The notes under the pieces were generated by a model. It had not been told where the DNA came from, did not search any database, and worked only from the letters and a program-made list of their open reading frames with translations. A program made the position numbers and the translations under genes. From Patescibacteria group bacterium (GTDB lineage: Bacteria > Patescibacteriota > Microgenomatia > UBA8517), in assembly GCA_041742135.1 (NCBI GenBank), contig JBGSJG010000001.1:67151-131150 (forward strand): a stretch of DNA of 64,000 bases, read 5' to 3'. The first letter of the stretch is position 1, and every line of letters begins with the position of its first letter. Of the stretch, positions 12,527 through 30,269 are shown piece after piece.

Positions 12527-12916
12527 CTAGGCTACTAAATTATCCAGGTAATTTTGAAGGATTAAAGTAGCTGAGAATGCGTCTTCCATTCTCCTTCTTT
12601 TTATTCGCTTCATGCCAGCTTCGATCGTCATCGCCTGAACATCCTTGGTTGTCAAGGTTTCGTCGGCGTAGACTACCGGCAAGCCAAGCTCTTTCTCGAG
12701 TAGCTCTCCAAATTCTTTTGAGGCCGCGCCTACTTCTCCATCCGAAAGGCCGATAACAATTTTTGAAATGTTATCTGTCAACACGATTCTTCCTATTTCG
12801 CGGGCCAAATCAATCGTCTTTTTGTACCTTATTACCCGAAGCGGAGCAGCCAGAGGACCAGCGGCATAGGCCAAGCCGACTTTACTTAATCCAAAATCAA
12901 TTCCTAGAGTATTCAT
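12527..12916 (-). CDS. ruvX: Putative pre-16S rRNA nuclease / Holliday-junction resolvase-like protein YqgF (RuvX)
   Basis: Translation MNTLGIDFGLSKVGLAYA…IVIGLSDGE…ILQNYLD matches the RuvX/YqgF fold signatures. Confidence 0.8.
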   Translation of the reverse strand: MNTLGIDFGLSKVGLAYAAGPLAAPLRVIRYKKTIDLAREIGRIVLTDNISKIVIGLSDGEVGAASKEFGELLEKELGLPVVYADETLTTKDVQAMTIEAGMKRIKRRRMEDAFSATLILQNYLDNLVA

Positions 12917-13568
12917 TACTGCTTAGTCTACCAGTGGGGTCAAGTCTTGCCCGTACTATGAGTCTTTTAGGGCGCAGCGGATGCCCGGGAGGAGTACAGG
13001 TGATAAGGGTAACATAAGAATCATCGAGGTTCTGAGCTAAGATCTCCAGATCTGTAGGTTTTACCTCAAAGACATCTTCAACCACAAATACGTAGGAAAT
13101 GCCATCGTAGCGGATTTCCAACTGGTCAGATTCTTTAATAGTAGGAAGGGTGGAAAAAATTGACATATAATCTTTGGGGTTAAAAAACTGCGGCAAAATC
13201 GAGTGGCCAAAGATAACAGCATTGCCGCGCTTACCTGGAAGAGCGGTTCCCGGATATTGGATTAGGGATTCACTTAAATCCTCCCCACCAATGGCTACAG
13301 TCGCGTCTTTGATGCCAAGTTTGGGAATAGTCAAATTGTAATAGCGAATTTTTGAGATATCAAAATCTTCAGAGTTTGTCGGAAACCACTGACTTGCCTT
13401 CGTATAGTCAATTTCCACTTCATCCTCTGGAACTGGTGAGAGGTACTCCCGAAATTGCGTTCCGTTGTCCAAAGAATATGTACTTATCGGCAAAACCACA
13501 TAGCCCAAAACCACAAGCCCCAATATAGCGCTAGTAAAACCAATAACTTTGCTGAAGCGTTTTTTCAT
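12897..13568 (-). CDS. Sortase family transpeptidase
   Basis: It has an N-terminal TM anchor, a His in …AVIFGHSI…, the TLxTC motif (TLITCTP) and a downstream Arg (…LIVRAR…). Confidence 0.8.
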   Translation of the reverse strand: MKKRFSKVIGFTSAILGLVVLGYVVLPISTYSLDNGTQFREYLSPVPEDEVEIDYTKASQWFPTNSEDFDISKIRYYNLTIPKLGIKDATVAIGGEDLSESLIQYPGTALPGKRGNAVIFGHSILPQFFNPKDYMSIFSTLPTIKESDQLEIRYDGISYVFVVEDVFEVKPTDLEILAQNLDDSYVTLITCTPPGHPLRPKRLIVRARLDPTGRLSSNEYSRN

Positions 13569-15718
13569 TGTTCGGCTAAAACTTCAATAGTCACATTTTT
13601 TGCAATGGTAGGGATTCTGTTAAGTATCCCGGGCAAAACTGGCTGAAGCGTAACAACTGCCCGTGAGTAGCCAGGGATTTGTGACAAGAAATCTTTAATG
13701 CTATCTGGCCGCTTGCCCAGCACTTCTTTTTTAATCGCATCTGTGTCTACTGAAGGCAGAAGATTGGCGCTTAGTGTGACATCAAACTCCCAAACTCCTG
13801 TATCGATCTCGTCAATTAAATCAAAATTTGCTGTGACCTGCTCACCTCGAAGGGCAAAACCCTCGGGGATTTGGTCTTTCAAAATAGTAAGGGACATTTG
13901 CTCAACTTGTTCTTTTGGTAAAACTAATCCGCGAGCTGACATGCTCATGGTGTAGCTTACACTGCCTGCTTCGTCCCCCGCTTTGCCACTTGATGACTCG
14001 TCAGTAATCTCGTAAGTTACGGACTCTGGAACAAATCGTGCACTTCCCGCCTCAGACGCGAGTCTCTCGCGTGCTTTGTCCTCAAGTTCGCTCTCCAAAT
14101 CTTCTTTTAATCCGCTTATATCAGAAGCTGAAATTGCTGTAATCTCGCGGCTTGATCCTCCGGAGAAGTCACTCTCTGCTACAGCGTCAACGTCGCTTTT
14201 TGGATAATTTCTCACAGAAAAAGTCTCGTCTTTTGCCAAATTGTACTGCCCACCAATATCCGCCGCAGTAGCCGCAACTGAGGCGCTGCCCGGGGTTGTA
14301 GGCGAGGAAGCTTTTGGAACATCAACCGCACTGTCTAGGGTAAATTTTAAATCATTTTGACCAGACAATGTGTCGCCGGCGTCAAAAGACAAGTCCTCCG
14401 CAGTTCCGTTTCTGATTGTCACAGACCCACGAGCAGGATCACCAACCGTTTTGACTCCCGTCGCAGAAGCAGTTTTTTCGGAAGTAACTTCGATTTGAAC
14501 AGACTCGGCAGGAAATTCAAAATTCTCGACATCTGCAGTTTCAATATCTTCAGAAAGTGTAATCACCTCAGAATCCTGCAAATTTTTTGGTGAAATGTGA
14601 ATCGTAATAGTAGCGCGTGGCAAATATATCCAAGCTGCTATAAGACCACCGAGTATCAAAACCAAGGCAACTGGAAGCAGTACTTTGAGTTTCTTGAGAT
14701 TAAGCCTTCTCTTTGCAAACGTAGGTGTCTCGGGAACGTGCGGCAGCTTTGGAGCTGCTGGCTTTTTTAACTTTTTAAAAATCCCCATAACTGGTGCGAG
14801 CGCCGTAAGCGGAGAAAAAGTGGGTTTTTTCTTCACCACGAGGGGATCTGGCAAATTCTCGGTATCACCCATGGTTGCCAGTGGTTCGCTGTGAACTTCC
14901 GAGATGTCGGCATCGACCACAAAACCTAAATCTTCAGGCGACAAATCTTCGGTGTGTTCAAAATTACTTTCTTCTGAATCGTCCCCTTCAACGCCTGTAA
15001 TTTCAGACAGCTCTGAAGCTCCAGCAATTGAAACTGCTTCAGCTTTTTCGCTAGAAGTTACAATGTCCACCTGGGGGGTGTGTAAAATCTTTAAGCTCTC
15101 AGACAAATCTTTCCAGTCTGTTTTGATAAGTTCCTGCTTAACTTCTTCAAGGCTAACTTCTTGACCATCATACAAAAGCCAGCGAGTAGGAATAGCTTCG
15201 CTTGATGGGAAGCGACTAAGGCCTTCTACAACGTCCTCGGTCAAAGAAACACTCCTGCCCACGCTCACCGTACCCACAATATTGCCGAGCCGAACTAAAG
15301 TTAAATCCAAGCTCCCCACCCCCACTCCAACGATTACTCCAGAAAGTGGGCTACCCTCACGAATTTTAACCCCATGAGCTATCGCTTCTGGCAAAACTAC
15401 AAACCCAGTTGGGGTCAGGGAAAGTTTTTGAGAAACCAACCTTATTTTTTCCAAATGGGCTTTTTTAATTTTGCCGTCTTCGACCCATGAGGCCGGGACA
15501 CCGTAAACGGTTTTGGAAGGCTCTTGGGCATTTTCTGGAAGCTCTGACACGACTTCGCTTAGCGCAGCATCAACCTTTTCAATCAAATCCTCATCTGTTT
15601 CCCATGTATTTGGAGTGCTTGTAGATAAAATTGCGACTTTGTCAGCCCGTACAGTCCATAAGGCAGCCTGAACCAACTCTTGTTCGATTACAATAGACCA
15701 GAAGTATTCTTCTTTCAT
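13565..15718 (-). CDS. Bitopic membrane protein. The N-terminal cytoplasmic domain, about 330 aa, resembles an FtsA/PilM actin fold. It has a single TM helix and a long acidic Ser/Thr-rich extracytoplasmic region.
   Basis: Segments …GVIVGVGVGSLDLTLVRLGNIVGTVSVGRSV… resemble the DxGGGTT region of FtsA/PilM. The TM helix is LKVLLPVALVLILGGLIAAWIYL. The assignment is tentative. Confidence 0.45.
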   Translation of the reverse strand: MKEEYFWSIVIEQELVQAALWTVRADKVAILSTSTPNTWETDEDLIEKVDAALSEVVSELPENAQEPSKTVYGVPASWVEDGKIKKAHLEKIRLVSQKLSLTPTGFVVLPEAIAHGVKIREGSPLSGVIVGVGVGSLDLTLVRLGNIVGTVSVGRSVSLTEDVVEGLSRFPSSEAIPTRWLLYDGQEVSLEEVKQELIKTDWKDLSESLKILHTPQVDIVTSSEKAEAVSIAGASELSEITGVEGDDSEESNFEHTEDLSPEDLGFVVDADISEVHSEPLATMGDTENLPDPLVVKKKPTFSPLTALAPVMGIFKKLKKPAAPKLPHVPETPTFAKRRLNLKKLKVLLPVALVLILGGLIAAWIYLPRATITIHISPKNLQDSEVITLSEDIETADVENFEFPAESVQIEVTSEKTASATGVKTVGDPARGSVTIRNGTAEDLSFDAGDTLSGQNDLKFTLDSAVDVPKASSPTTPGSASVAATAADIGGQYNLAKDETFSVRNYPKSDVDAVAESDFSGGSSREITAISASDISGLKEDLESELEDKARERLASEAGSARFVPESVTYEITDESSSGKAGDEAGSVSYTMSMSARGLVLPKEQVEQMSLTILKDQIPEGFALRGEQVTANFDLIDEIDTGVWEFDVTLSANLLPSVDTDAIKKEVLGKRPDSIKDFLSQIPGYSRAVVTLQPVLPGILNRIPTIAKNVTIEVLAEQ

Positions 15719-18389: not shown

Positions 18390-18634
18390 TTTGCAGAATT
18401 TTCTCCGTGGGTTTGCATCCCCTTTTTCTTTCTAAATAATTCCAAAACGCTTGTAAGCTTATCCGGTCTGATCAAGCCTCCTCCAATAATTGAATCTTCC
18501 AAAATTGAATTGATGCGCCTCATCATGCGGCGCAGATCCCGAATTACCATAAAAATCTGAGTCCCTATTACGATCAAAAGTATTGTTAATGCAATGACAA
18601 CAACCGTAAGTAGTGTTTGTACGTTTTCCATCAC
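18386..18634 (-). CDS. Small single-pass membrane protein translationally coupled to rodZ
   Basis: The hydrophobic helix is LLTVVVIALTILLIVIGTQIFMVI. It overlaps the 3' end of the rodZ-like gene by 4 nt. Confidence 0.4.
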   Translation of the reverse strand: MMENVQTLLTVVVIALTILLIVIGTQIFMVIRDLRRMMRRINSILEDSIIGGGLIRPDKLTSVLELFRKKKGMQTHGENSAN

Positions 18635-19260
18635 TGGGTAAATTGTGGATTAATATTACGTGTTTGGCGTGTTACTTTTCCAGCCCTAGAAGTTGCCGTA
18701 ACTTCAATCTTTTTTGAATCTAAGTTTATTTCTATAGTTGTACTAAAAGCTCCGTCTTCAGCCACTAAGGCTGGTTGTGAATTAACCACGACCGAGGTAT
18801 TTGGATCAGTTTTGCCTGAAACACGTACCTGGTCTTGCGTAATTAGGGCCGCTTCTGCCGGTGTGTCGATATTCAAACTTGGAGGACGAGTAAAAGCAAG
18901 ATATTGAGAAATCAAATATGCCGCGATCGCAATTACTACTAGTGCGGCCCCGGCAAAAAATACCAATTGAGGACTTAAGCGAAATTCACGAGGAATATCG
19001 GGCTTTGGAAGAACAGAAACGTTTTGAGGCGGATAGTCGCGACGAAGAAGTGCCGAGGCTTGGTCACGATCAGCACCTACTGCATCAGCTATGTTTTTAA
19101 CAAAACCAGAAACAACAGTAAACTCAGGTAGGCGAGCCCACTTCTCCTTTTCAATCGCTTCCAAAAACTCATGCCGGATTTTTGTTTCAGCAGAAACATC
19201 TTTAATGGTCAGGTTTTTAATTTTCCTTGCAGATCGCAAGTATGTCCCGATAGTTTTCAT
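18631..19260 (-). CDS. rodZ: RodZ-like cytoskeleton protein: N-terminal XRE-type helix-turn-helix, a TM helix and an extracytoplasmic C-terminal domain
   Basis: The helix-turn-helix is …LRSARKIKNLTIKDVSAETKIRHEFLEAIE… and the TM helix is VFFAGAALVVIAIAAYLI. The ORF track start at 19314 overlaps ftsK. The internal Met (MKTIGTY) at 19260 avoids the overlap. Confidence 0.55.
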   Translation of the reverse strand: MKTIGTYLRSARKIKNLTIKDVSAETKIRHEFLEAIEKEKWARLPEFTVVSGFVKNIADAVGADRDQASALLRRDYPPQNVSVLPKPDIPREFRLSPQLVFFAGAALVVIAIAAYLISQYLAFTRPPSLNIDTPAEAALITQDQVRVSGKTDPNTSVVVNSQPALVAEDGAFSTTIEINLDSKKIEVTATSRAGKVTRQTRNINPQFTQ

Positions 19261-19264
19261 GAGT

Positions 19265-21406
19265 TTAATTTTGGTTTTCCTCGGGAGAATCGGGTGGCGC
19301 TGCTCCAAATACATCAGCTGAGTTTTGGACTAAAACATCACGAGGCTTACTGCCATCAGCAGCGCTTACTACTCCTGCTGCCTCCAGCTGGTCCAAAATA
19401 CGAGCCGCGCGAGCATAACCGATCGAAAGCCTCCTCTGAAGAAGCGAGGCAGAAGCACGGTCATACTGGCAAACCACTTCGACTGCGCTTTTGAACAAAT
19501 CATCTGCATCGCCCTCTACTCCTGCCACTGCATTTCTGCCTTGTTTCTCCATAGTCGTAACTTCTTCGGTGTACTGGGGCATCACACCTTGTTGTTTTAT
19601 AAAATCAATCAAGGCCTTTGTGTCCGAATCTGTCACAAAAGCTCCTTGAATTCTCTTGGCGCGAGCCTGATCTGGCGCCAAATAAAGCATGTCACCTTTA
19701 CCCAAAAGCTTCTCGGCTCCCTGGCCATCCAAAATAACTCGGGAATCTACTTGAGAGCTTACTGCAAAGGCAATTCGACACGGAATGTTTGCCTTGATAA
19801 GGCCTGTGATGACATCAACTGAAGGCCGTTGTGTGGCCAAAACCATGTGAATTCCTGTAGCTCGGCTCATCTGGGCGATACGAGTAATAGCCTCCTCCAC
19901 CTCGACTGGGGCTGCAAGCATGACATCGGCCAGCTCATCAACCACAAAGATTATGTAAGGCAGAGCCTGAAAGCCTGACATTTGGTTATAGCCATCGATG
20001 TTTCGTACTCCAGCTTGGGCAAAAAGCTTGTAACGGCGATCCATTTCAGAAATTGTCCATCGAAGAGCAGAAATCACTTTATCAGGCTCTACAATCACGG
20101 GACTTAGTAAATGTGGGATGTCGTTATAGCCGGTGAGCTCGACGCGCTTAGGATCTACCAGAATAAACTTAACTTCCGAAGGCGAAGCGCGGAAAAGTAG
20201 CGATGCCATGAATACGTTTAGACAAATACTTTTGCCCGAACCTGTCTGGCCCGCGATCAAGACGTGAGGCATACGAGCAATGTCCGCGATTACCGGCTTA
20301 CCGGCCACGTCAAAACCCAAGGCAACTGCGAGTTTGGAAGGGTGGTTTTGCATCTCTTCAGATACAATCATTTTCTTGATTGGCACAAATTCAGGTGAAC
20401 GGTTGGGCAGTTCAATGCCCACCAAAGAGCGGCCCGGGATTGGAGCCTCGATACGAATTGTTCCTGTGGGAGCTGCCAAGGCCAAGGCCAAATCGCGCTC
20501 AAGCGCAGTGATTTTACTAAGCTTGGTGCCAAGAGCAACTTCTAGGGCATATTGGGTGACTGCCGGTCCTTGGTTTACTTCCACAACACGCGCTGTGATA
20601 CCAAAGCTCTCAAGTGTCTCTTCAATAGTGTGGGCATTATCGCGAATGTCTCCACGGTCCGCATGCCCAGCATCACGCGCGGTCAAAATATTGGCTGAAG
20701 GGTATTTCCAAGATTGATCGGCGCCAGGCATGTTACTTACAAGTTGTGCCGTCAGGGCTTCCTTTGGAGCTTCGGCTACTGGCCTTGCTCGCAGGTCACG
20801 CTTGGGCTCACCACTCGCGTCACCTCCAGTAACTTTAAGCTCCTTTTTGCCGGTAAAACTCCCAGGCCTTGCTTTCACTCCTTCGTCTCCCACCAATATC
20901 TTCCTAATTTGTCGCAAGGCTGCCGCGAGAAATTCTAAAACTTTATCAAATGAAGTGTTAAAGAGAACCACAAGCCCAACAACAGCTGCAGCAAGCAGTA
21001 AGATAAAAGCACCCACTGGTGTCACGAGAGCCACCACTCCTAGCCAAGCTTGGCGGCCAAAATAACCAGCACGAGTTAGAGCTGAAATGGAAACGAAAAA
21101 TAAAATTGTGCCTATCAAAACATTTGGCTGGCCCAAGGGGGTCTTAAGTTTACTCATAAGAAATCCCAAAGAAATAAGAATGAAAGGAAGGAGAATCGAG
21201 CTCCAGCCAAGATAATTTACCAAAGTATCATTGACGCCCACTAAAGCACTGCCTTGGCGGGAGAAAGAAACAAGAATAAGCCCAGCCAAAGCAAAAACTC
21301 CGATTTGAATAATTGAAAAAATTACTTCAGACTTAATGTTTAAAGCCGGTCCTTTTTTGTGCCTGCCACCTCGAGGCACAACCTTACTTTTTTTCTTCTT
21401 GGCCAT
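19265..21406 (-). CDS. ftsK: DNA translocase FtsK/SpoIIIE
   Basis: It has N-terminal TM helices, the Walker A motif GQTGSGKS and a C-terminal winged-helix gamma domain. Confidence 0.9.
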   Translation of the reverse strand: MAKKKKSKVVPRGGRHKKGPALNIKSEVIFSIIQIGVFALAGLILVSFSRQGSALVGVNDTLVNYLGWSSILLPFILISLGFLMSKLKTPLGQPNVLIGTILFFVSISALTRAGYFGRQAWLGVVALVTPVGAFILLLAAAVVGLVVLFNTSFDKVLEFLAAALRQIRKILVGDEGVKARPGSFTGKKELKVTGGDASGEPKRDLRARPVAEAPKEALTAQLVSNMPGADQSWKYPSANILTARDAGHADRGDIRDNAHTIEETLESFGITARVVEVNQGPAVTQYALEVALGTKLSKITALERDLALALAAPTGTIRIEAPIPGRSLVGIELPNRSPEFVPIKKMIVSEEMQNHPSKLAVALGFDVAGKPVIADIARMPHVLIAGQTGSGKSICLNVFMASLLFRASPSEVKFILVDPKRVELTGYNDIPHLLSPVIVEPDKVISALRWTISEMDRRYKLFAQAGVRNIDGYNQMSGFQALPYIIFVVDELADVMLAAPVEVEEAITRIAQMSRATGIHMVLATQRPSVDVITGLIKANIPCRIAFAVSSQVDSRVILDGQGAEKLLGKGDMLYLAPDQARAKRIQGAFVTDSDTKALIDFIKQQGVMPQYTEEVTTMEKQGRNAVAGVEGDADDLFKSAVEVVCQYDRASASLLQRRLSIGYARAARILDQLEAAGVVSAADGSKPRDVLVQNSADVFGAAPPDSPEENQN

Positions 21407-21455: not shown

Positions 21456-22175
21456 TTAATCTGTAAATTCAAAGGTGGAGAGGATTTGATTAACTGAGTC
21501 GATAGATGCAGATTTATTAACCATAATCTCAAGTCCTCCAGAAATATAAGGAACATGGTAAATATCAAATTTCACTTGGGATGAAACGGAGGTATATTTG
21601 GTTGCTTCTTTCTGGCCAACTGATGCACTGCTACTTTTCCAATCTGAAGTTGGAGTTGGAGCAATCAACAGATTAAAATGCTGTATATCAATCACCCGAT
21701 CCACGTACTCTAAGTTACCAAGTGCATAAATCAAAATATTGTTGGTTTGTGAGTATACGGCTCCGCCCGCATCTGCATCATAACCTTGGATAACGAAATC
21801 AAGAGGGTAGCTAAAACTATAGTTATATGCCGTATTTGAATAACTCTTCCAATCGCTCATGCCGACTTCCTCTGAGGGTTCAAGACTTACTGATGATTCT
21901 TCCACCACAGCTTTTGCAGTTGGTGAAGGCTCTGTGATTTGCGGTTCGGTTTTGCTGGTCACTACAAGAACCAAAGCTACAATAATTAGCAGTAGGATTG
22001 CCACAATTCCCACAAGAACCATTGCAATCGTGTTTTTAGATTTTGGAGGTTCTGGGGTTGGTGGGACTATGGGTACTTCAGGAATTACTGGCTCGGCTAC
22101 TGGCAATTGTCCGGTTGGGGTAACTGGAACTACTGCTGGTGTAGTTTCTGGAGTTGGGTTTTGATCTGGGTTCAT
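21456..22175 (-). CDS. N-anchored bitopic protein, paralogue 1 of a tandem family. It has a Pro-rich cytoplasmic N-terminal tail, a TM helix, an extracytoplasmic domain and a conserved C-terminal ILSTFEFTD.
   Basis: Translation MNPDQNPTPETTPAVVPVTPTGQLPV…KSKNTIAMVLVGIVAILLLIIVALVLVV…SVNQILSTFEFTD. Confidence 0.7.
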   Translation of the reverse strand: MNPDQNPTPETTPAVVPVTPTGQLPVAEPVIPEVPIVPPTPEPPKSKNTIAMVLVGIVAILLLIIVALVLVVTSKTEPQITEPSPTAKAVVEESSVSLEPSEEVGMSDWKSYSNTAYNYSFSYPLDFVIQGYDADAGGAVYSQTNNILIYALGNLEYVDRVIDIQHFNLLIAPTPTSDWKSSSASVGQKEATKYTSVSSQVKFDIYHVPYISGGLEIMVNKSASIDSVNQILSTFEFTD

Positions 22176-22178
22176 GGT

Positions 22179-23231
22179 TTAATCAGTAAATTCAAAAGTG
22201 GAAAGAATTTGTGACGCAACTGAGTTACTGTTTGGTTCAGAATAATTAATAAAATAAAATACTGTCTTGTCACTATTTGCAAAAAATAGCACCGTTGTGC
22301 CCCCGTTGGTTATTGTCTGTGCATTAACTCCGTCAATTAAAGTTACCGACTCCACTGAATCGCCATTCTTAAATAAAGTGCTGTTAAACTCGCTCCACTC
22401 TTCGAATGTTGGCTTGTCTGGAATTTCCGAACCAACCACAGAGATCGCGATATAAGAATTTGGCTCAGCCGGGTCAGAAAAAACAAATATAGCACTTGTA
22501 TCCGTTTCAGCTTCTTCTCGGGTCACGCTCCAAGTGTCTGGGTGGTTTACCTCAAAACCGTAATCCGAATTTGAAAAAGCCAACCAATTGGATGGGGGTT
22601 CAAAGTTTTGTAAATTTTGTTGGACATCTTCGCCATTTTCAATCTCCGCTTCCGATTGTCTGTTGTCGACCAACTTATTGTCGCTGTCGTATGTGCTTAC
22701 AATCTTTTGCTTTAGATTTTCGACGTCGATATCAAAAGAAGGAGAGATGGCTTTTCCGTGTATGTCCTTTGCGTCTATTTCCCAAGCATCCCCTTCGCTC
22801 CCCGTGACAACTAAGTACTGATTATTATCTTTTTTATCCACCACCACCCCTACCCAATCCTGCTTCGTTTGCTCCGCACTGCCGGGGCCCACAAACAAAA
22901 CTACATCTCCAACCTTAGGTTGCCCAAAACGGTACGACAGTTTTTCGATCCACACCTGAGAGCTATCGGTAAGTAAAAGATTACTATCCTTTGCACTTAT
23001 GCGATATGGAGAAAGGACAAAGACATACAAAGTCATTCCCAAAGCAAGCAAAACCAAAACTGCACCAATAATCATGAATATTTTTCTTTTAGATTTTGGC
23101 TTTTCGGGAGTTGGGGAAATTTCAGGTTGAATTTCAGTCGTCGGAACGGCAACTGGTAATTGTCCGCCGGTTGGACTAACAGGAGCTACTGCTGGTGTAG
23201 TCTCTGGAGTTGGGTTTTGATCTTGGTTCAT
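22179..23231 (-). CDS. N-anchored bitopic protein, paralogue 2 (ILSTFEFTD family)
   Basis: It has the same MNQDQNPTPETTPAV… Pro-rich tail plus TM architecture and ends …SVASQILSTFEFTD. It is 3 bp from the neighbouring paralogue. Confidence 0.7.
   Translation of the reverse strand: MNQDQNPTPETTPAVAPVSPTGGQLPVAVPTTEIQPEISPTPEKPKSKRKIFMIIGAVLVLLALGMTLYVFVLSPYRISAKDSNLLLTDSSQVWIEKLSYRFGQPKVGDVVLFVGPGSAEQTKQDWVGVVVDKKDNNQYLVVTGSEGDAWEIDAKDIHGKAISPSFDIDVENLKQKIVSTYDSDNKLVDNRQSEAEIENGEDVQQNLQNFEPPSNWLAFSNSDYGFEVNHPDTWSVTREEAETDTSAIFVFSDPAEPNSYIAISVVGSEIPDKPTFEEWSEFNSTLFKNGDSVESVTLIDGVNAQTITNGGTTVLFFANSDKTVFYFINYSEPNSNSVASQILSTFEFTD
23066..23138. repeat. Exact 73-bp repeat, second copy at 24322..24394. 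It encodes the identical …EIQPEISPTPEKPKSKRKIFMIIGA… segment of paralogues 2 and 3.
   Basis: Base-by-base comparison in the window gives identical 73-mers. Flanking sequence diverges. Confidence 0.8.
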
Positions 23232-23234
23232 GGT

Positions 23235-24482
23235 TTAGTCAGTAAATTCAAAGGTGGAAAGGATTTGGTTTAGAAAATCATTGCTTTCCCCACCTGAAGT
23301 CTTAGTTAGCAAAAAGATCTGACTTCCTCCTCCTGGAATCACGACGTATGTCATTCCATTACTGCCTGAGTCGTCAGCGTTTACAACCAACGCATTTACC
23401 CCGTCAACACCAATCTCTTCGTAAGTAAGCTCGTATGTGCTCAAATCAAATTTCTCGGCTAACCATTCTCTGCGAGAACCACCTGAATAATCATCGTATA
23501 AAGTGATAGTAAAGCCAGCTCCACAGTAAGGCCCGCTACAATTTAAAAACGATGCTTTACTGCCTTTCTGTGTCGCTTCATCGTTTAACTGATAATAATC
23601 AGGGTACTTTACAGAAAAACCAGCCCCGTTGTCTTCGTATTTCAACCAGTCTTCGGTAATCTCAAATTTCGGCGCAGGCACAGGTGAGCTAGCCGCAGAA
23701 GCATTGGAGAATTCAAAAGTGGAGAGGATTTGATCAAATATTTCCATGTCTCTGTTTTTAATTTCTTCTACTTCTTGTGAACTTTTTCCTCCAACACCCC
23801 AAGAAATTATATATTTGGTATCCCCAACAACGGTCCATACCTCTTTTGAATAATTATTTGAAGGTTGATTTTCAATTGTGCGTTCATAAACCAAAGCGTC
23901 TTGCCCATCTAACTTTTGAACCGAAATCGAAGAATAAGCAAAATCTGGAAAATCTTTACCAGTCTGCTCTAATGCTTGACGTTTCTCCTCGAGTGACTTT
24001 CCTTCTGTATAATCTAAATCCTGAATATCAAACGCAATTACAGACCCCCTACCATCTTCCTGTTGATTTTCAGGAAAAGAATTTATTTGATAATAGGATT
24101 TACTAACACCTCTGCCGTACGACCAAACATGCCAATTCTTGGGAATAGACACAGTAAACAAGCCACCACCATTGTAAGTATTCCAATCACCCGTCTCGTC
24201 CTCCATGGTGGCCTCAGGGGTGTTCGTTGGCTCAACCACCCTCTGGTCTTCGGCCGGTTTTTGAATGACTGAAAATGTAAATATCCCCACCGCGCCTAAA
24301 ATCAGCAAAGTTAAGATCGCTCCAATAATCATGAATATTTTTCTTTTAGATTTTGGCTTTTCGGGAGTTGGGGAAATTTCAGGTTGAATTTCAGAGGTCG
24401 GAACTGCAACTGGTAATTGGCCTGTTGGAGTAACTGGAGCTACAGGTGGAACTTGCGAGACTGGGGCTTCTTCTGGATTCAT
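23235..24482 (-). CDS. N-anchored bitopic protein, paralogue 3 (ILSTFEFTD family), with an internally duplicated extracytoplasmic module
   Basis: It has two copies of the terminal motif (…EIFDQILSTFEFSNASAAS… and C-terminal …FLNQILSTFEFTD). The N-terminal tail and TM are nearly identical to paralogue 2. Confidence 0.7.
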   Translation of the reverse strand: MNPEEAPVSQVPPVAPVTPTGQLPVAVPTSEIQPEISPTPEKPKSKRKIFMIIGAILTLLILGAVGIFTFSVIQKPAEDQRVVEPTNTPEATMEDETGDWNTYNGGGLFTVSIPKNWHVWSYGRGVSKSYYQINSFPENQQEDGRGSVIAFDIQDLDYTEGKSLEEKRQALEQTGKDFPDFAYSSISVQKLDGQDALVYERTIENQPSNNYSKEVWTVVGDTKYIISWGVGGKSSQEVEEIKNRDMEIFDQILSTFEFSNASAASSPVPAPKFEITEDWLKYEDNGAGFSVKYPDYYQLNDEATQKGSKASFLNCSGPYCGAGFTITLYDDYSGGSRREWLAEKFDLSTYELTYEEIGVDGVNALVVNADDSGSNGMTYVVIPGGGSQIFLLTKTSGGESNDFLNQILSTFEFTD

Positions 24483-24494
24483 ATTGCCAGTGTC

Positions 24495-26147
24495 TCACAC
24501 TTCAATAACTACCGGCAAGATCATCGGTCTGCGGCCAATCTCATCAAAGAAGAAATGCTCTAGAGTGTCGACCACAATTTCTTTGAGCCTATGGGTATTT
24601 ATTCCTTGCCTATTCGCCTGCTCCATTACTCGGTCAACCCCTTTTTGGAGTACTGCTTTACTGTCTTTTTCAAAAACAAATCCGCGAGTGATAAGCTCGG
24701 GGTTTCCCGCGATTTTATTCGCGGCTTTATCAAATTGAATCAAGGCCACTACAAAGCCCTCTTGAGACAATATTTTTCGATCGCGAAGGACGATGTTGCC
24801 CACGTCTCCCACCCCAAGCCCGTCAACCAACACGTCACGAACAGGAATTCTCTTGCCTCTTTTGGCATTTCCATTTTCATAAATTATGGAATCCCCCGGC
24901 ATAAGCTCAAAGATAGAATTTGCAGGATTACCCAAGCCTTGAGCCAACAAGCTATAAGCACGCATGTGCCGTACTGTCCCTCCGATTGGAATAAAATACT
25001 TGGGCTTTATAAGTCCAAACAAGAATCTTATATCTTCCTGCGATCCGTGGCCTGAAACATGCAAATCTTCCTGAAGATCGTAATAATGAACATCCACGTT
25101 AAGTTCCAAGAGACGATCCACAATATAATCTACTTTCACTTTTGACCCAGGTGGTGCTGGGTCTGCCGAGAAAACAACGCTGTCCCCAGCCTCGATTTTA
25201 AGAAAACTATGAGATTCTTCAGCTACCCGGTGCAGCGCACTTCCCGCCTGGCCATAACAGCCGGAAATTATGTATAAGATTTTGTTTCTAGGTGCACGAG
25301 CGGCCGCATGCGCATTCATTTCAATGTTAGATCCATAGTTCAAATAGCCAAGCCTTCGGGCAATCTCAGCTTTAGCCTCCATCGAGCGACCGATAAAAGC
25401 CACTTTGCGGCCATTTTTCTCGGCTGCTCGGATCGCCTGTTGCATACGGCTAATGTTGCTTGAAATAGTCGTGAAGTACACACGGCCTGTAGCCTTTGAG
25501 ACCACCTGCTCAATGCGTTCCTCTAAAACACTTTCACTTTCAGTGTGCCCCGGGTTTGTGGAACCCAAAGCATCTGAGGCTAAGCCTAAAACGCCTTTAC
25601 TGGCCAGTGAAACCGCTTTAGCCACGTCAAAAGGCTTGCGATCCACAGAGCTCCAGTCAAATTTGTAATCTGGTACATGCATAAGGACTCCCTGTGGAGT
25701 TTCAATTGCAAGCCCAACAGCGTCGGGGACAGAGTGCGAAACACGGAAGATGTTTATATTAAAAACCCCAAGCTTTGTGGCAATTGCCCGATCAGGGTCC
25801 ATGACGTTAACGCGTACACCTTTTACACCATAATCGGCCAATTTATCTTCAATGAATGCAGCCGTGAGGCGTGTTGCGAAAATTGGAGCTTGGACTTCTT
25901 TGAGCAAAAATGGAAGCGCGCCCAGATGATCTTCGTGGCCGTGAGTAATTACAATTCCTCGAAGCTTGTTTTTGTTTTTAAGAATGTAGTCAAAATCGGG
26001 AATAACCAAGTCAACTCCGAGCATTTCGGGGTCGGGAAAACCCACTCCACAGTCCACTACAACCATGTCGTTGCCATATTCGTAGACGTAAAGATTTTCG
26101 GTTGCACCAGTTGTGCCCGAAAGGGCGATGAATTTTAGTTCAGCCAT
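24495..26147 (-). CDS. rnj: Ribonuclease J (metallo-beta-lactamase / beta-CASP)
   Basis: It has the HxHxDH motif (…ITHGHEDHLGALP…) and beta-CASP and C-terminal domains. Length is 550 aa. Confidence 0.9.
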   Translation of the reverse strand: MAELKFIALSGTTGATENLYVYEYGNDMVVVDCGVGFPDPEMLGVDLVIPDFDYILKNKNKLRGIVITHGHEDHLGALPFLLKEVQAPIFATRLTAAFIEDKLADYGVKGVRVNVMDPDRAIATKLGVFNINIFRVSHSVPDAVGLAIETPQGVLMHVPDYKFDWSSVDRKPFDVAKAVSLASKGVLGLASDALGSTNPGHTESESVLEERIEQVVSKATGRVYFTTISSNISRMQQAIRAAEKNGRKVAFIGRSMEAKAEIARRLGYLNYGSNIEMNAHAAARAPRNKILYIISGCYGQAGSALHRVAEESHSFLKIEAGDSVVFSADPAPPGSKVKVDYIVDRLLELNVDVHYYDLQEDLHVSGHGSQEDIRFLFGLIKPKYFIPIGGTVRHMRAYSLLAQGLGNPANSIFELMPGDSIIYENGNAKRGKRIPVRDVLVDGLGVGDVGNIVLRDRKILSQEGFVVALIQFDKAANKIAGNPELITRGFVFEKDSKAVLQKGVDRVMEQANRQGINTHRLKEIVVDTLEHFFFDEIGRRPMILPVVIEV

Positions 26148-26177: not shown

Positions 26178-26813
26178 CTACGCTGCCAGAAGTTCAAATA
26201 CTTCAGAAACCTCCTCGAGTGAATTCAATTGGGATTCTAAACTCGCAATTTTCATTTGCACCTGTTCCACTTTTTCATCTTTGCCAGAATCACCATCTTG
26301 CGTTTGAAGCTCGGCTAGCGCTGCTTTTGCTTCGGCCAACTTTGCTTCAAGCTCAGCCTTAAGCCTTTGCTGCTCTTCTTTTTGCCTTTTAACTTCCTCG
26401 GCTCGCCTAGCCTGAAATTCCTGCTTTTCTCTTTGATAGACGGTTACTAAACCATCATCTGCATAAAACCTGTTCACATCATCTGGAGTTAACCAAGCCT
26501 CGGCTTGATCAGTCCCATTCATTGCTACAGCCAATAAATGCTCGTATCTTTGAGTATTTGTCCAGTCCTCTCTGTTGGTCCCCGAGACATCTTTGGGATC
26601 CTGTGTTTTCAATTCCAAAACGTCTGCTGGTTTCTCTAAATTAAGTTCAACAATGGCTCTTGCAGCCACCCCCTGAAGAAGCGCATCCACCCCTTTTTCA
26701 TAATCATGAAAGCCGAGTTCGGGTCGTTTAAGACCCACTCCGCGAAGATCCTCTTTGCCCAAATTAGGGACAAGCGAGTCAATATCGTTAGGTGTTTGCT
26801 CATTCATGCTCAT
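26178..26813 (-). CDS. Hypothetical protein with a C-terminal coiled coil
   Basis: The tail is charged and helical (…RRAEEVKRQKEEQQRLKAELEAKLAEAKAALAELQ…). No family was recognised. Confidence 0.45.
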   Translation of the reverse strand: MSMNEQTPNDIDSLVPNLGKEDLRGVGLKRPELGFHDYEKGVDALLQGVAARAIVELNLEKPADVLELKTQDPKDVSGTNREDWTNTQRYEHLLAVAMNGTDQAEAWLTPDDVNRFYADDGLVTVYQREKQEFQARRAEEVKRQKEEQQRLKAELEAKLAEAKAALAELQTQDGDSGKDEKVEQVQMKIASLESQLNSLEEVSEVFELLAA

Positions 26814-26822
26814 AATATACCT

Positions 26823-27875
26823 CTAAACATATTCAGAAGCAATAAATTCTTTGACGTTGCCTTCATTTATCACAAACTTTGTTCCTTTTCCCTCTACCAT
26901 TTGTTTGGCAACTTTTCGCACCAAGCCATAAATTGTCCTCTGAAGTGTACGAATTCCAGCATCAAAACCCAAAGGACGAACGAGCTTTGACCAGACTGCG
27001 TCTTCCACAACCACAGCATCCTGTGGAATATTTGCCTCTTTTAGCGCATGAGGCAGAATGTATTTTTTCCCGATGATCGTCTTTTCCTCGTCGTTGTATG
27101 AAGGCATGTTAATAGGCTCAAGCCTATCCATGACGGCTGTAGCTATGCCTTGAGTATTGTTTGCTGTAGCTATAAAAATAGCCTCAGATAGATCGAACGG
27201 ATAATCCAAATAGTGATCCACGAACGCTTTGTTTTGCTCGGGATCGAGTAGCTCCACCAAAACTCCCATAATGGAAGCGCGGCCTTCGTCTGTTACACGG
27301 TCAATTTCATCCAAAAGAATTACCGGGTTTCGGCTTTGAGCGCTACGCAAGGCTTTAATAACTTTTCCGGGCTCTGCCTCAGGATGCATACGGGACTGGC
27401 CACGCAGATCCAATGGGTCCCCCATGCCTCCAAAAGGAATACGAGCAAACTGCCTGCCCATAGCCTCAGCAATTGAAACTGCCATGGTAGTTTTTCCAGT
27501 TCCCACGAGGCCCACAAAACACATAATGGGCGCTCGAGCCATGCCCTCTTTGTTATTTTTATTAAGCTGCATCACAGCCATGTATTCCAAAATTCGGTCT
27601 TTAAGACCTGTTAAACCGTAATGGTTTTTTTCAAACACTTCGCGTGCACGACCCAAGTCCAAAATATCATCCGTGCGTTTGTTCCAAGGAAGGCTTACCA
27701 CCCATTCAATATATTTATTGACGCGGTCCACCTCAGGCAAAAAAGATTGAGAACCAGTAAGAAGTGCAAGCTGGTCAATACGGATTTTAATGTTCTCGTG
27801 AAGATCGGCAGGAATCTGCCCACTTGAGAGTTTCTTTTCCAAATCCACCAAAAGATCTTTGGGGTTATTATCCAT
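26823..27875 (-). CDS. Lon-family AAA+ ATPase module with no Lon N-domain and no S16 peptidase domain
   Basis: It matches the Lon ATPase core (…LPWNKRTDD…HYGLTGLKDRILEYMAV…, Walker A GLVGTGKTT, Walker B VILLDEID, sensor …ATANN…, …LLDPEQN…). The ORF ends where the protease domain would begin. Confidence 0.75.
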   Translation of the reverse strand: MDNNPKDLLVDLEKKLSSGQIPADLHENIKIRIDQLALLTGSQSFLPEVDRVNKYIEWVVSLPWNKRTDDILDLGRAREVFEKNHYGLTGLKDRILEYMAVMQLNKNNKEGMARAPIMCFVGLVGTGKTTMAVSIAEAMGRQFARIPFGGMGDPLDLRGQSRMHPEAEPGKVIKALRSAQSRNPVILLDEIDRVTDEGRASIMGVLVELLDPEQNKAFVDHYLDYPFDLSEAIFIATANNTQGIATAVMDRLEPINMPSYNDEEKTIIGKKYILPHALKEANIPQDAVVVEDAVWSKLVRPLGFDAGIRTLQRTIYGLVRKVAKQMVEGKGTKFVINEGNVKEFIASEYV

Positions 27876-27911: not shown

Positions 27912-30269
27912 TTACCTACTGAAGCGCTTTTTGTCACTTGATCCAGACACTAATCTGGAAGTCGGGAAATGAGGCCCAGAGGAACCGCGGTCACGTCGGT
28001 CTCCGCTTCGATCGTCTCGCCTACCCGTTCGGCTTCGCTCAGGGTTATAACCACCACGATCACTGCCACTTCTAAATCCACCTCGGCTGCCGCCCATTCG
28101 ACTACGCTCAGGGCTATAGCCTCCACGATCTCCACCACCCATTCGGCTTCGCTCAGGGTTATAACCTTCGCGAGGTTCGCGTGGTTTTTCCTTCGAAGCA
28201 TCCAAGATCATAGACAAATTGAGTCTGCCCATCTTGTCAATCTCTTTTACTCGAACGGTTACAGTGTCGCCTTCTTTTGCAATATCTGCTGGGTCTTTAA
28301 CAAATTCCTCAGCCATGTCTGAAACGTGGACCAAGCCCTCTTTACCCGGAAGAATTTCCACAAATACTCCAAAAGGCTGCATTCTTTTAACTAACCCTTC
28401 ATAAATTTCTCCGGGGATTACTTCTTTTACCATGCCGCTAACCCACTCAACTGCTTTGTCGACACTCTCTTCACTGGTTCCAGAAATGCTTACTGTTCCG
28501 TCATCCTCCACATCAACTGTGGCTCCTGTATCGGCCATAATCTTTTTGATCATCTTGCCCCCGGGGCCAATGATTTCGCCAATTTTCTCAACTGGGATTT
28601 TAACGGCTTTGATCTTTGGTGCATAAGTTGAAACATTAGTACGAGAAGCTTTAATAGTCTCAAGCATCGAAGCCAAAATAAACGCTCTTCCCTCTTTTGC
28701 CTGAGTAAGAGCCTCCGCCAACATCTCGGGTGTTAAATTTAGAGTTTTTACATCGAGCTGAAGTGCTGTAATTCCTTTTGATGTTCCGGCAACTTTAAAG
28801 TCCATGTCACCATTAAAGTCTTCAATTCCCATGATGTCGGACAAAATTGCATATTTTTTAGCAGATTCGACAACGAGCCCCATGGCAATTCCAGAAACTG
28901 GAGCTTTGATTGGTACTCCTGAGTCCATCAAAGCAAGTGTTGAGCCACAAGTGGAAGCCATAGAAGTTGAGCCATTTGAGCTCATAATTTCGCTGACCAA
29001 ACGAATGGCATAAGGAAATTCTTCAGCAGAAGGCAATACCGGCATCAAAGCGCGCTCTGCCAAGGCACCATGACCAATTTCGCGGCGGCTTGGAAAACCA
29101 ACTCTTCCAGCTTCACCAACAGAAAACGGCGGCATGATGTAGTGATGCATGTAGCGCTTTTCCTCTTCACCTTCAGCGGTTTCAATTAATTGACCCATGG
29201 AAGGAGTTCCCAAAGTGGCGACGGTCAAAGCCTGGGTAGATCCTCTTTGGAAAATTGCAGACCCGTGAGTTCGTGGCAAAACGCCAACACGGCTTGAAAG
29301 CGGACGGATTTCGGTGTGCTTCCTACCATCTGGTCGCTTACCAGCCAAAATCATTTCGCGAATGCGATCGTGAATAAGTCCATCAATAATGCCAAAAACC
29401 ATGGCCTTTTCTGTTTCTTCAACTTCGCCTTTAACTTCCTCAATTAAATCATCCAAAACGCTGTTCTTGCCTTCTTTAGTAGCCAAAGCAGCAACAACCT
29501 CGTCGATTTTCTTCTCAGAAAGTTTTGTTACTTTTTTCACAAGCTCGGCGTCTTCCGGAAGCTTTGGAGCTTCTTGTTTGTCAACTCCCCATTCGCTGGC
29601 AAATTCATTGATAAATTTAAGAACCGCCTTAGACTCTTTTTGAGCGAAATTAATTCCGCCAATTATTTCCTCTTCAGTAGCTTCATTTGCCCCCGCTTCG
29701 ATCATAACTACTGCGTCAGATGTTGAAGAAACTACCAATTCCATATTGGAAAATGAACTTTCTGTGTCTGTTGGATTAACGAAGTATGCTCCGTCTTTCA
29801 TGCCAACTCTCAAAGTAGCTACAGGTCCTTCCCAAGGAAGTCCTGAAGCGGCAACTGCAGCAGAAACTGCCAAAGGTGCGACGTCCACAGGCGAATTAAC
29901 CATATCAACGGACAAAAGCGTAATAATTATCTGAACTTCTTTTTTATAAGACTTCGGAAACAGAGGGCGAATGGAGCGATCAATCAAGCGGCCAGTTAAA
30001 ATTTCTTCATCTGTGGGGCGGCCTTCACGCTTAACCCATCGGCTGCCTTTAATGCGGCCTCCAGCGTAAAGTCTTTCTTGGTACTCAATTGAGAGAGGGA
30101 AATAATCCAATTCTTGTTTTAACGGAGCCGCAACTACTGTCGCCAAAACAACAGTTTCGCCGTAAGTGGCCAGTACCGCTGCATCTGCTTGGCCAGCAAG
30201 CTCTCCAATGGCTAGGGTTAAGTCGCGTCCACCGAGGCTTAATGTTTTTTCTACTTTTTTATTTACCAA
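27912..30269 (-). CDS. pnp: Polyribonucleotide nucleotidyltransferase (PNPase) with a C-terminal Arg/Gly-rich repeat extension
   Basis: It has two RNase PH-like domains, KH and S1 (…GRDLTLAIGELAGQADAAVLATYGETVV…). The tail …GGYNPERSRMGGGDRGGYSPERSRMGGSRGG…GGYNPERSRTG… is encoded by visible DNA repeats at about 27970–28200. Confidence 0.95.
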   Translation of the reverse strand: MVNKKVEKTLSLGGRDLTLAIGELAGQADAAVLATYGETVVLATVVAAPLKQELDYFPLSIEYQERLYAGGRIKGSRWVKREGRPTDEEILTGRLIDRSIRPLFPKSYKKEVQIIITLLSVDMVNSPVDVAPLAVSAAVAASGLPWEGPVATLRVGMKDGAYFVNPTDTESSFSNMELVVSSTSDAVVMIEAGANEATEEEIIGGINFAQKESKAVLKFINEFASEWGVDKQEAPKLPEDAELVKKVTKLSEKKIDEVVAALATKEGKNSVLDDLIEEVKGEVEETEKAMVFGIIDGLIHDRIREMILAGKRPDGRKHTEIRPLSSRVGVLPRTHGSAIFQRGSTQALTVATLGTPSMGQLIETAEGEEEKRYMHHYIMPPFSVGEAGRVGFPSRREIGHGALAERALMPVLPSAEEFPYAIRLVSEIMSSNGSTSMASTCGSTLALMDSGVPIKAPVSGIAMGLVVESAKKYAILSDIMGIEDFNGDMDFKVAGTSKGITALQLDVKTLNLTPEMLAEALTQAKEGRAFILASMLETIKASRTNVSTYAPKIKAVKIPVEKIGEIIGPGGKMIKKIMADTGATVDVEDDGTVSISGTSEESVDKAVEWVSGMVKEVIPGEIYEGLVKRMQPFGVFVEILPGKEGLVHVSDMAEEFVKDPADIAKEGDTVTVRVKEIDKMGRLNLSMILDASKEKPREPREGYNPERSRMGGGDRGGYSPERSRMGGSRGGFRSGSDRGGYNPERSRTGRRDDRSGDRRDRGSSGPHFPTSRLVSGSSDKKRFSR

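Follow-up and report, generated by a model that had tools for sequence, protein, structure and literature searches.

The window, a 64,000-nt stretch of a contig from a Patescibacteria group bacterium, holds three neighboring minus-strand genes, here called A, B and C, whose features are collected in Table 1. The open reading frames and the junction sequences agree with the original prediction of a 3-bp separation, as the A/B and B/C junctions both read TAA-ACC-ATG and thus leave 3-nt spacers. Each protein starts with a Pro-rich N-terminus of about 45-48 residues; next come a basic patch, which reads KPKSKRK in B and C and KSK in A, and a single hydrophobic helix. This is the arrangement that had been predicted, apart from the proposed MNP(D/E) start, which does not extend to B (MNQDQ). 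Likewise, all three proteins do end in the predicted constant sequence QILSTFEFTD. A further copy lies inside C (DQILSTFEFSNASAAS at aa 250-265), so that the six reading frames of the whole 64 kb yield four ILSTFEF matches in total, namely the three protein ends and the interior of C.

Table 1. Features of the A-B-C array (coordinates in the window; aa, residues of the encoded protein)
Feature	Residues	Coordinates	Strand	Basis or remark
Gene A		21456-22175	-	ORF, 239 aa
A Pro-rich N-terminal tail	1-48			
A TM helix	49-73	21957-22031	-	AF2 model; followed by a linker
A PsbP-like module	107-239	21459-21857	-	module HMM without tail, 3.9e-15
A tail QILSTFEFTD	230-239	21459-21488	-	end of C-terminal helix and final short strand
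Gene B		22179-23231	-	ORF, 350 aa
B TM helix	48-73	23013-23090	-	AF2 model; preceded by Pro-rich tail
B degenerate signal-peptidase-I-like (S26) segment	55-127	22851-23069	-	Pfam Peptidase_S26
B acidic linker			-	between S26-like segment and module
B PsbP-like module	214-350	22182-22592	-	module HMM, 8.8e-23
B tail		22182-22211	-	
Gene C		23235-24482	-	ORF, 415 aa
C TM helix	49-73	24264-24338	-	preceded by Pro-rich tail
C module 1, PsbP-like	98-260	23703-24191	-	module HMM; linker, then module 2
C internal tail QILSTFEFSN	251-260	23703-23732	-	end of module 1
C module 2, PsbP-like	277-415	23238-23654	-	module HMM
C terminal tail QILSTFEFTD		23238-23267	-	end of module 2
73-nt tract in B		23065-23137		identical to 24322-24394 in C
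73-nt partner copy in C		24322-24394		identical to 23065-23137
101-nt junction repeat		22111-22211		B tail, stop, ACC, start and first codons of A
Junction repeat partner		23167-23267		C tail, stop, ACC, start of B

Together the proteins hold four ectodomain modules, each closed by QILSTFEF. A profile search finds two of them in C (6.4e-16 and 3.1e-24), in keeping with the second motif copy reported there. Protein identity among the four is only 20-27%, with QILSTFEF invariant in all. The relatives of C (homologues P0002, P0003 and P0004) share 38-50% identity per module, and those in other organisms are orthologues of one module or the other, P0002 and P0004 of module 1 and P0003 of module 2. 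We hypothesize that C was born by internal module duplication or by fusion.

The AF2 model of A has a mean pLDDT of 79 and consists of the helix at 49-73, nine strands between 110 and 220, a helix at 225-233 and a short strand at 236-237. Its module is modeled confidently, and the last two 10-residue blocks reach a pLDDT of 93. The best PDB matches found by Foldseek are BT_1490, CyanoP (2lnj), PsbP (1v2b, 2xb3, 2vu4) and PsbP-like subunits of NDH-PSI, at probabilities of 0.97-1.0 and TM-scores to the target of 0.44-0.50. PsbP and CyanoP are extrinsic, non-enzymatic proteins that bind membrane complexes outside the cytoplasm. A shares the alpha/beta sandwich of PsbP, CyanoP and PsbP-like proteins (PF01789; also 7wff_f), although sequence identity is only about 7-15%, and those proteins are soluble or lipid-anchored whereas the window proteins are held by an N-terminal TM helix. 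BT_1490, a structural-genomics protein of Bacteroides thetaiotaomicron (PDB 3hlz), is the best match by E-value (3.5e-4, probability 1.0), but at 12% identity and a TM-score of only about 0.3 it contributes nothing on mechanism. DcrB (DUF1795; PDB 6e8a), from the wider Mog1/PsbP-like superfamily, has a Mog1/PsbP-type domain tethered on the external side of the cytoplasmic membrane, where it serves as a non-enzymatic envelope adaptor. Its structural match to A is weak (probability 0.13-0.18) and the likeness is one of analogy; it differs in having a lipoprotein anchor instead of a TM helix and in lacking the ILSTFKF signature. Searched by sequence against PDB chains, the module profile gave no significant match, and against NCBIfam the three proteins drew nothing but sub-threshold noise, FliL-like TM matches for example. 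No photosynthesis genes occur among the annotated ORFs of the window.

The family to which the modules belong is PsbP_2 (PF18933), whose domain is the same as theirs. Among the homologues, 59 of 91 match this model at E <= 0.01 (best 1e-10), and 7 of 10 that were re-scanned surpass its gathering score of 27 bits; scores include 42.3 bits for P0036, 41.0 for P0054, 36.8 for P0028, 34.5 for P0042 and 31.2 for P0002. The PsbP model PF01789 is touched by 4 of 91, weakly, and one homologue cluster carries the UniRef name 'PsbP C-termi...'. None of the window proteins reaches the gathering score alone, A scoring 12.9 bits, B 17.2 and C 26.2 (aa 62-240 on profile positions 4-174). Because they fall below the threshold while their homologues lie above it, they are divergent relatives that Pfam would not call. 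They depart from the PF18933 domain in a long Pro-rich cytoplasmic tail, and additionally in the S26-like segment of B and the two modules of C.

The wider family is very large. The module profile, built without the tail, matches 25,552 cluster representatives (clusters at 50% identity), 3,595 of them at E <= 1e-10; the closest relatives of the window proteins come from Microgenomates-type Patescibacteria. Many family proteins hold two to six modules. In 26 of 80 GTDB loci there are at least two genes with the motif, with arrays of up to five genes and up to three motifs per protein. Genomes of Patescibacteria thus commonly carry tandem arrays and multi-module proteins, and A, B and C are unexceptional, if divergent, representatives of this very large group of PsbP-like proteins with a membrane anchor. 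This bears out the tandem, N-terminally anchored paralogue family of the original prediction. A full-text literature search found no paper mentioning the ILSTFKF/ILSTFEF signature, and a search for PsbP-like or PF18933 proteins in Patescibacteria or CPR found nothing relevant.

The constant tail had not been recognized as any described sorting signal or domain. A reading as an undescribed motif or sorting signal is not supported, as the tail is the C-terminal end of a known, common domain, an outcome that the original prediction had named as refuting it: the last position of the PF18933 profile (184 of 184) falls on the last F of ILSTF[KE]F in P0042, P0074, P0054 and P0002, whose full-length matches stop at residues 207, 251, 195 and 221, respectively. 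We read QILSTF[E/K]F as the closing stretch of the last helix of the module together with a short terminal strand, a part of the fold that marks where each module ends, and not a sorting signal. The predicted structures place the tail within the domain, as helix and short strand (pLDDT about 93 in A), and from this secondary structure and confidence its residues would be buried. Among the near-complete modules of the best 148 of the 25,552 representatives, the strict motif follows within 45 residues after 168 of 288 and a relaxed motif after 261 of 288. It also trails interior modules where a protein has several, with internal copies in C, P0007, P0106-P0117 and many loci. Since the motif follows most modules, internal ones included, a C-terminal sorting signal is unlikely.

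Such a signal, read by dedicated Patescibacteria machinery for sorting, attachment or processing and targeting or anchoring the proteins at the surface, would resemble the LPXTG/sortase and PEP-CTERM/exosortase signals in being a short conserved motif at the C-termini of envelope proteins. It would account for the extreme conservation of the motif, polar residues included, and for the fact that most single-module chains stop exactly two residues past FKF. A sortase gene also lies in the window (12897-13568), about 8 kb away, and a sortase is found near family members at 7 of 80 related loci. However, known signals of this kind have a TM helix and basic tail that are missing here; the terminal motif is followed by two residues only (TD, TK, TN and so on), with no hydrophobic helix, basic tail or LPXTG-like motif after it, and in some family proteins 35-390 residues trail it. 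The sortase linkage is limited to a handful of related loci whose housekeeping synteny is conserved, and the motif sits inside a folded Pfam domain that recurs within proteins of two to six modules. We therefore regard a sorting function as very improbable.

The near-invariance of Q, S and T and the frequent chain end exactly two residues past the motif (60 of 148 and about 75 of 105) nevertheless go beyond obvious structural need. QILSTF[K/E]FT-x-COOH might conceivably be a docking site common to thousands of PsbP-like ectodomains that otherwise look unrelated, recognized by one conserved partner such as a pilus, a processing enzyme or a component of the wall or S-layer, which we consider a long shot. 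If it were true, the tandem arrays would amount to a Patescibacteria-wide modular surface display, in which the constant ends recombine and so reshuffle the variable faces that contact the host or partner.

Recombination has left clear traces in the array. The 73-nt tract in B, which runs from the last part of the cytoplasmic tail through the basic patch into the TM helix, is identical to its partner in C, and the probability of such an exact run arising by chance is about 2e-8 given 74% identity across the 229 alignable nucleotides of B and C. The repeat had been predicted correctly in its extent and exactness, with the first copy placed one base off at 23066-23138. The 5' end of B is a mosaic, A-like over codons 1-13 and C-like over codons ~30-55. 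The A/B and B/C junction repeats are 91% identical, matching the near-identity of stop/start sequences noted before, and the rnj/C junction is unrelated to them. Arrays in other genomes also contain exact 5' tracts, of 123 nt (L011), 67 nt (L076) and 56 nt (L033). Recombination or gene conversion between B and C is thus real and the tract is recent, as had been proposed. We hypothesize that the array arose by tandem duplication and that its near-identical cytoplasmic tail and TM segments derive from recent recombination or gene conversion among neighbors. The divergence of the ectodomains is close to saturation.

Exact and near-exact nucleotide repeats invite the thought that the tail and 5' regions are kept constant by gene conversion or some nucleotide-level function alone, or that the genes are decaying pseudogene fragments. 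All four window tails share the E variant of the motif, a rare form seen in about 2% of the motifs elsewhere, and rare variants cluster above chance, with 17 same-variant pairs within proteins and loci against 5.2 +/- 2.2 expected. Yet the four tail copies vary at synonymous sites (ATC/ATT, CTC/CTT, ACC/ACT, GAT/GAC), which indicates that purifying selection at the protein level preserves the tail and led us to reject conservation by gene conversion only. The same peptide is moreover conserved over thousands of distant proteins and many Patescibacteria lineages. The pseudogene idea, which the original prediction had named as a case against itself, was rejected too, as the three ORFs are intact and their modules match the family profile end to end. 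We find either version scarcely credible.

The extra segment of B recalls signal peptidase I in that an N-terminal TM anchor is followed by an S26-like stretch scoring above the Pfam cut-off (PF10502; 31.2 bits against 22.9). The match covers profile positions 5-74 of 168, and positions 75-168, the C-terminal half of the catalytic domain, are unmatched in B. Staphylococcus aureus SpsB aligns with the segment over about 100 residues. Where signal peptidase I has its SM.PT box, B reads DSNLL and the context is lost. In the HMMER alignment the Lys of VKR in SpsB falls on the K of QTKQ in B, and its nucleophile Ser falls on an Asp, with a Ser one residue further in a region modeled at low confidence, so that the assignment of the Ser/Lys catalytic dyad of boxes B and D hinges on a one-residue shift. 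The B protein sequence has no box resembling GDN...S.DSR, which we take to be the box E consensus of signal peptidase I. Confidence is lower in this part of the model (pLDDT 40-55, against 65-95 in the module), which has no deep alignment behind it; a homologue search found no relatives of whole B beyond its neighbors A and C, and no close homologues of the segment. The segment is probably not an active peptidase. No bona fide signal peptidase I was found elsewhere in the 64-kb window.

We propose that the N-terminus of each protein would be cytoplasmic, with one module (A, B) or two (C) displayed outside the cytoplasmic membrane. This location is suggested because basic residues precede the TM helix in A, B and C, and because Kazal or Cys-rich, disulfide-rich domains stand beside the module in relatives. 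Upstream of C, across a 12-nt gap, lies the RNase J gene rnj. No promoter-like or terminator-like site was seen at the rnj/C or intra-array junctions, a promoter-like site appearing only past A, upstream of ftsK; A, B and C are probably co-transcribed with rnj. Across the 80 loci no neighbor family recurs in more than 9. Those that do recur (the housekeeping genes rpoB/rpoC, PNPase, PBP-like, DprA-like and YceG/MltG-like, and a sortase with an adjacent gene of ~700 aa) do so in a few related genomes, which we take as synteny and not functional linkage. Purely by analogy with PsbP and CyanoP, which act outside the cytoplasm, the modules would most likely have a non-enzymatic role at the cell envelope, as binding or scaffold domains. 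Taken as a whole, we hold with good confidence that the array encodes tandem single-pass PsbP-like paralogues, whose tail belongs to the fold and is not a sorting signal, and whose modules would serve such a binding or scaffold role.

The array could also be a diversifying surface family in contact with a host or partner, its constant 5' and 3' ends serving as homology arms for the exchange of ectodomain cassettes. Such a diversifying surface or host-interaction family, suggested in the original prediction, would fit the data, in that ectodomains only 20-27% identical lie between constant ends, recombination tracts occur in the 5' anchor in the window and in other genomes, with shorter exact matches in the tail, and the family, besides its very large size, frequently forms tandem arrays. 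A published study also describes cultivated Patescibacteria as living as episymbionts (PMC12206443). We nonetheless consider it unlikely, as there is no sign of recent whole-ectodomain swaps, the modules having diverged anciently with their own orthologues elsewhere, no phase-variation signals or silent cassettes were seen, and the array stands in a housekeeping operon context.

For the window itself the consequence is of small weight: the three genes can take the annotation of PsbP-like proteins with a membrane anchor (PF18933 type), and their tail is explained. The wider family, with over 25,000 clusters (50% identity), is among the large uncharacterized protein families of Patescibacteria. 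Its signature, W..Y.N..YGF...YP ... QILSTFKF, provides a sequence handle that delimits the modules for work on the CPR envelope and episymbiotic surface.

The genes A, B and C are intact open reading frames that carry the sequence TAA-ACC-ATG at both the A/B and the B/C junction, and all three proteins terminate in QILSTFEFTD, as the original prediction of three adjacent genes with a shared end had stated. Their predicted N-terminal architecture is likewise present in all three: about 45-48 Pro-rich residues lead into a basic patch and then a single hydrophobic helix (aa 49-73 of A and 48-73 of B in the predicted models). However, the MNP(D/E) start assigned to the family does not apply to B, whose protein opens MNQDQ. 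The internal motif copy proposed for the third gene exists as QILSTFEFSN at aa 251-260 of C, and scanning all six frames of the 64-kb window locates the motif at these four places only. Four modules can be delimited, each with a W..Y/F...(G)F...P hairpin motif at its start and QILSTFEF at its end; they are 20-27% identical between these conserved ends, and a module HMM found no fifth copy in the window.

Features of the array and its surroundings in the window
Feature	Position	Strand	Remarks
Gene A	21456-22175	minus	239 aa
Gene B	22179-23231	minus	350 aa
Gene C	23235-24482	minus	415 aa
Module of A	aa 107-239		
Module of B	aa 214-350		
C module 1	aa 98-260		
C module 2	aa 277-415		
S26-like (signal-peptidase-I-like) segment of B	22851-23069	minus	aa 55-127, between TM helix and module
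PNPase	27912-30269		co-directional housekeeping block
Lon-like AAA+ protein	26823-27875		co-directional housekeeping block
Acidic protein	26178-26813	minus	211 aa; Glu/Lys/Gln-rich C-terminal half; between Lon-like AAA+ and RNase J genes; no Pfam match
RNase J	24495-26147		followed by C, B, A
FtsK	19265-21406		after A
RodZ-like HTH gene	18631-19314		downstream of ftsK
AlaRS	further downstream		same block
717-aa gene	13565-15718	minus	no Pfam match
Sortase	12897-13568	minus	overlaps end of 717-aa gene
Giant ORF	2055-9083	minus	2,342 aa; same co-directional block

Several lines of evidence identify the ectodomain. Pfam scores against PsbP_2 (PF18933) are all below the cut-off of 27 bits (26.2 for C, 17.2 for B and 12.9 for A). 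A word-indexed module profile search, whose hit list is biased to motif-containing sequences, retrieved over 100 proteins, about 180-290 aa in length; every named one is from Patescibacteria (Microgenomates-group, Parcubacteria-group, Doudnabacteria and Saccharibacteria), and one cluster bears the UniRef name ‘PsbP C-termi...’. Among 91 aligned homologues, 59 match PF18933 at E <= 0.01 (best 1e-10), and 7 of 10 that were re-scanned exceed its gathering score. An AlphaFold2 model of A, built on the homologue alignment, has a mean pLDDT of 79, rising to about 90 across most of the module; there, nine strands (110-220) precede a helix (225-233, SVNQILST), and residues 236-237 form a short strand. 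Its best PDB matches in Foldseek are BT_1490 (3hlz), CyanoP (2lnj, 2xb3), plant PsbP (1v2b, 2vu4) and NDH-PSI PsbP-like subunits, with probabilities of 0.97-1.0 and TM-scores to target of 0.44-0.50; query-normalised scores are low because the whole model of A, disordered N-terminus and TM helix included, served as query. The Pfam, homologue and Foldseek matches therefore show the ectodomain to be a PsbP-like alpha/beta sandwich. Pfam already contains this domain and automatic annotation catches it; A, B and C add new, divergent members.

The conserved tail had been taken for an undescribed motif, but it matches a known common domain, the result that the original prediction had set as its own refutation: PF18933 matches that reach position 184/184 end on the last F of ILSTF[KE]F (residue 207 of homologue P0042, 251 of P0074, 195 of P0054 and 221 of P0002). 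Both models fold the tail into the module as a helix followed by a short strand (pLDDT about 93 in A). Because the word-indexed hit list favours motif-bearing sequences, the conservation argument uses a profile with the tail cut off (A4), run against 1.84 billion cluster representatives. At E <= 1e-3 its yield was 25,552 proteins, of which 3,595 remain at a limit of E <= 1e-10, and the top-scoring ones hold 2-6 modules. Of the 288 near-complete modules in the 148 best-scoring proteins, 168 have the strict motif [ILVM][ILVM][SA]TF.F within the next 45 aa and 261 have a relaxed form, for which we estimate a chance level of about 5%. Many of these copies are internal, with a short linker and then the W..Y start of the next module behind them, and nothing similar to a TM-plus-basic sorting tail lies downstream of the motif, which together argue against a C-terminal sorting signal. 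The Pfam end point, the models, the tail-less profile and the internal copies thus establish the tail as the end of the PsbP-like domain. Since its polar residues are near-invariant and the chain nearly always stops exactly two residues past it, there is a slim chance that it doubles as a common docking site.

Recombination has left traces at the 5′ ends. When the three 5′ regions are aligned, identity between A and B is 89-97% for the stretch that runs from the upstream tail to codon ~13, B and C show 100% identity at codons ~30-55, and all three diverge beyond the TM helix; the 5′ end of B is thus a mosaic. The reported exact 73-nt repeat exists, although its first copy lies one base away from where it had been placed (23065-23137, partner 24322-24394), and such a run has a probability of ~2e-8 at 74% background identity. 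This tract and the mosaic support the ongoing concerted evolution originally proposed, as far as the 5′ segments are concerned. Codon use, however, varies synonymously among the four tails (Ile ATC/ATT, Leu CTC/CTT, Thr ACC/ACT, Asp GAT/GAC), so what is conserved there is the protein sequence. A similar pattern is seen in the arrays of other genomes, which contain long exact matches in the 5′ anchor region (123 nt at locus L011, 67 nt at L076, 56 nt at L033 and 44 nt at L039) and shorter ones, 20-37 nt, on the tails. At the sixth residue of the motif, rare variants are clustered by protein and by locus (17 same-variant pairs versus 5.2 +/- 2.2 in shuffles), and the rare E occupies this position in 4/4 window copies, a pattern consistent with inheritance along lineages, to which some concerted evolution may have added.

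A GTDB scan of one genome per species with the pattern QILSTF[KE]F[TL] gave 534 matches, from which 80 loci were kept. The titles of most refer to Patescibacteria lineages, and no well-characterised non-CPR organism is named in any of them; the remainder have vague or probably wrong titles. At least two same-strand motif genes occur at 26 of the 80, in arrays of up to five, and it is common for a protein to have two or three motifs at a spacing of ~150 aa. Triplication with internal module duplication, as in the window, is the normal look of the family. Many motif-gene records (L001, L006, L011, L012, L027, L077 and others) are titled ‘uncultured Gammaproteobacteria’ or ‘Pseudomonadales’. At least some of these titles are probably wrong, because L077 shares the window's gene order Lon-RNase J-FtsK-RodZ-AlaRS and its proteins are 37-52% identical to the window's.

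Gene B alone carries an S26-like segment, which scores 31.2 bits against Pfam Peptidase_S26 (cut-off 22.9) and covers only profile positions 5-74 of 168. Aligned with S. aureus SpsB, it places Asp opposite the nucleophile Ser, with a Ser one residue later, and has DSNLL in place of the SM.PT box; the general-base Lys may be retained, and the segment lacks the C-terminal half of the catalytic domain. A whole-protein search with B found no homologues besides its two neighbours, no homologue of the S26-like plus PsbP-like fusion turned up among 5.8 billion proteins, and the model is unreliable over the segment (pLDDT 40-55). We take the segment to be a degenerate, lineage-specific insertion that is probably inactive.

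A gap of 12 nt separates the start of gene C from the stop codon of the gene before it. No promoter- or terminator-like site was found at the rnj/C, C/B or B/A junctions, so the array is likely co-transcribed with rnj; the 49-nt gap ahead of ftsK contains a TTTACC-17-TATAAT site. Family genes occur at varying points of a conserved PNPase-Lon-RNase J-FtsK block (L041, L077, L044, L005, L007, L016, L076): between PNPase and Lon, between Lon and RNase J, or before RNase J elsewhere, and between RNase J and FtsK in the window. Clustering of all neighbours found no recurrent partner gene in more than 9 of the 80 loci, and gene context yields no functional lead. At L077 a family member stands in place of the window's 211-aa protein. 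The ftsK and RodZ-like ORFs overlap by 50 nt as listed (19265-19314), and the true HTH gene start may lie further downstream. The sortase and its ~700-aa neighbour recur near family members (L015, L017, L020, L065, L073), often accompanied by a YceG/MltG-like gene and rpoB/rpoC, apparently a case of synteny conserved within a single Microgenomates clade.

Some relatives (P0020, P0014, P0011, P0052) carry a Kazal-type inhibitor domain between TM helix and module or a 40-70 aa Cys-rich extension past the tail, and the type IV pilin N-terminal methylation motif scores 17 bits in P0044, a weak match below the cut-off of 21.2. Because basic residues precede the TM helix and relatives bear Kazal or Cys-rich extracytoplasmic domains beside the module, we propose that A, B and C adopt an N-in/C-out topology. 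PsbP and CyanoP have non-enzymatic binding or scaffold roles, and by analogy the modules may play such a role at the envelope. This function is a guess, held with much less confidence than the structural and evolutionary account of architecture, fold, family and recombination, of which we are fairly sure. Our literature search found no paper with the motif and none on PsbP-like proteins in Patescibacteria; the PsbP-like family of these bacteria as a whole is uncharacterised, yet it does not represent a novel type.
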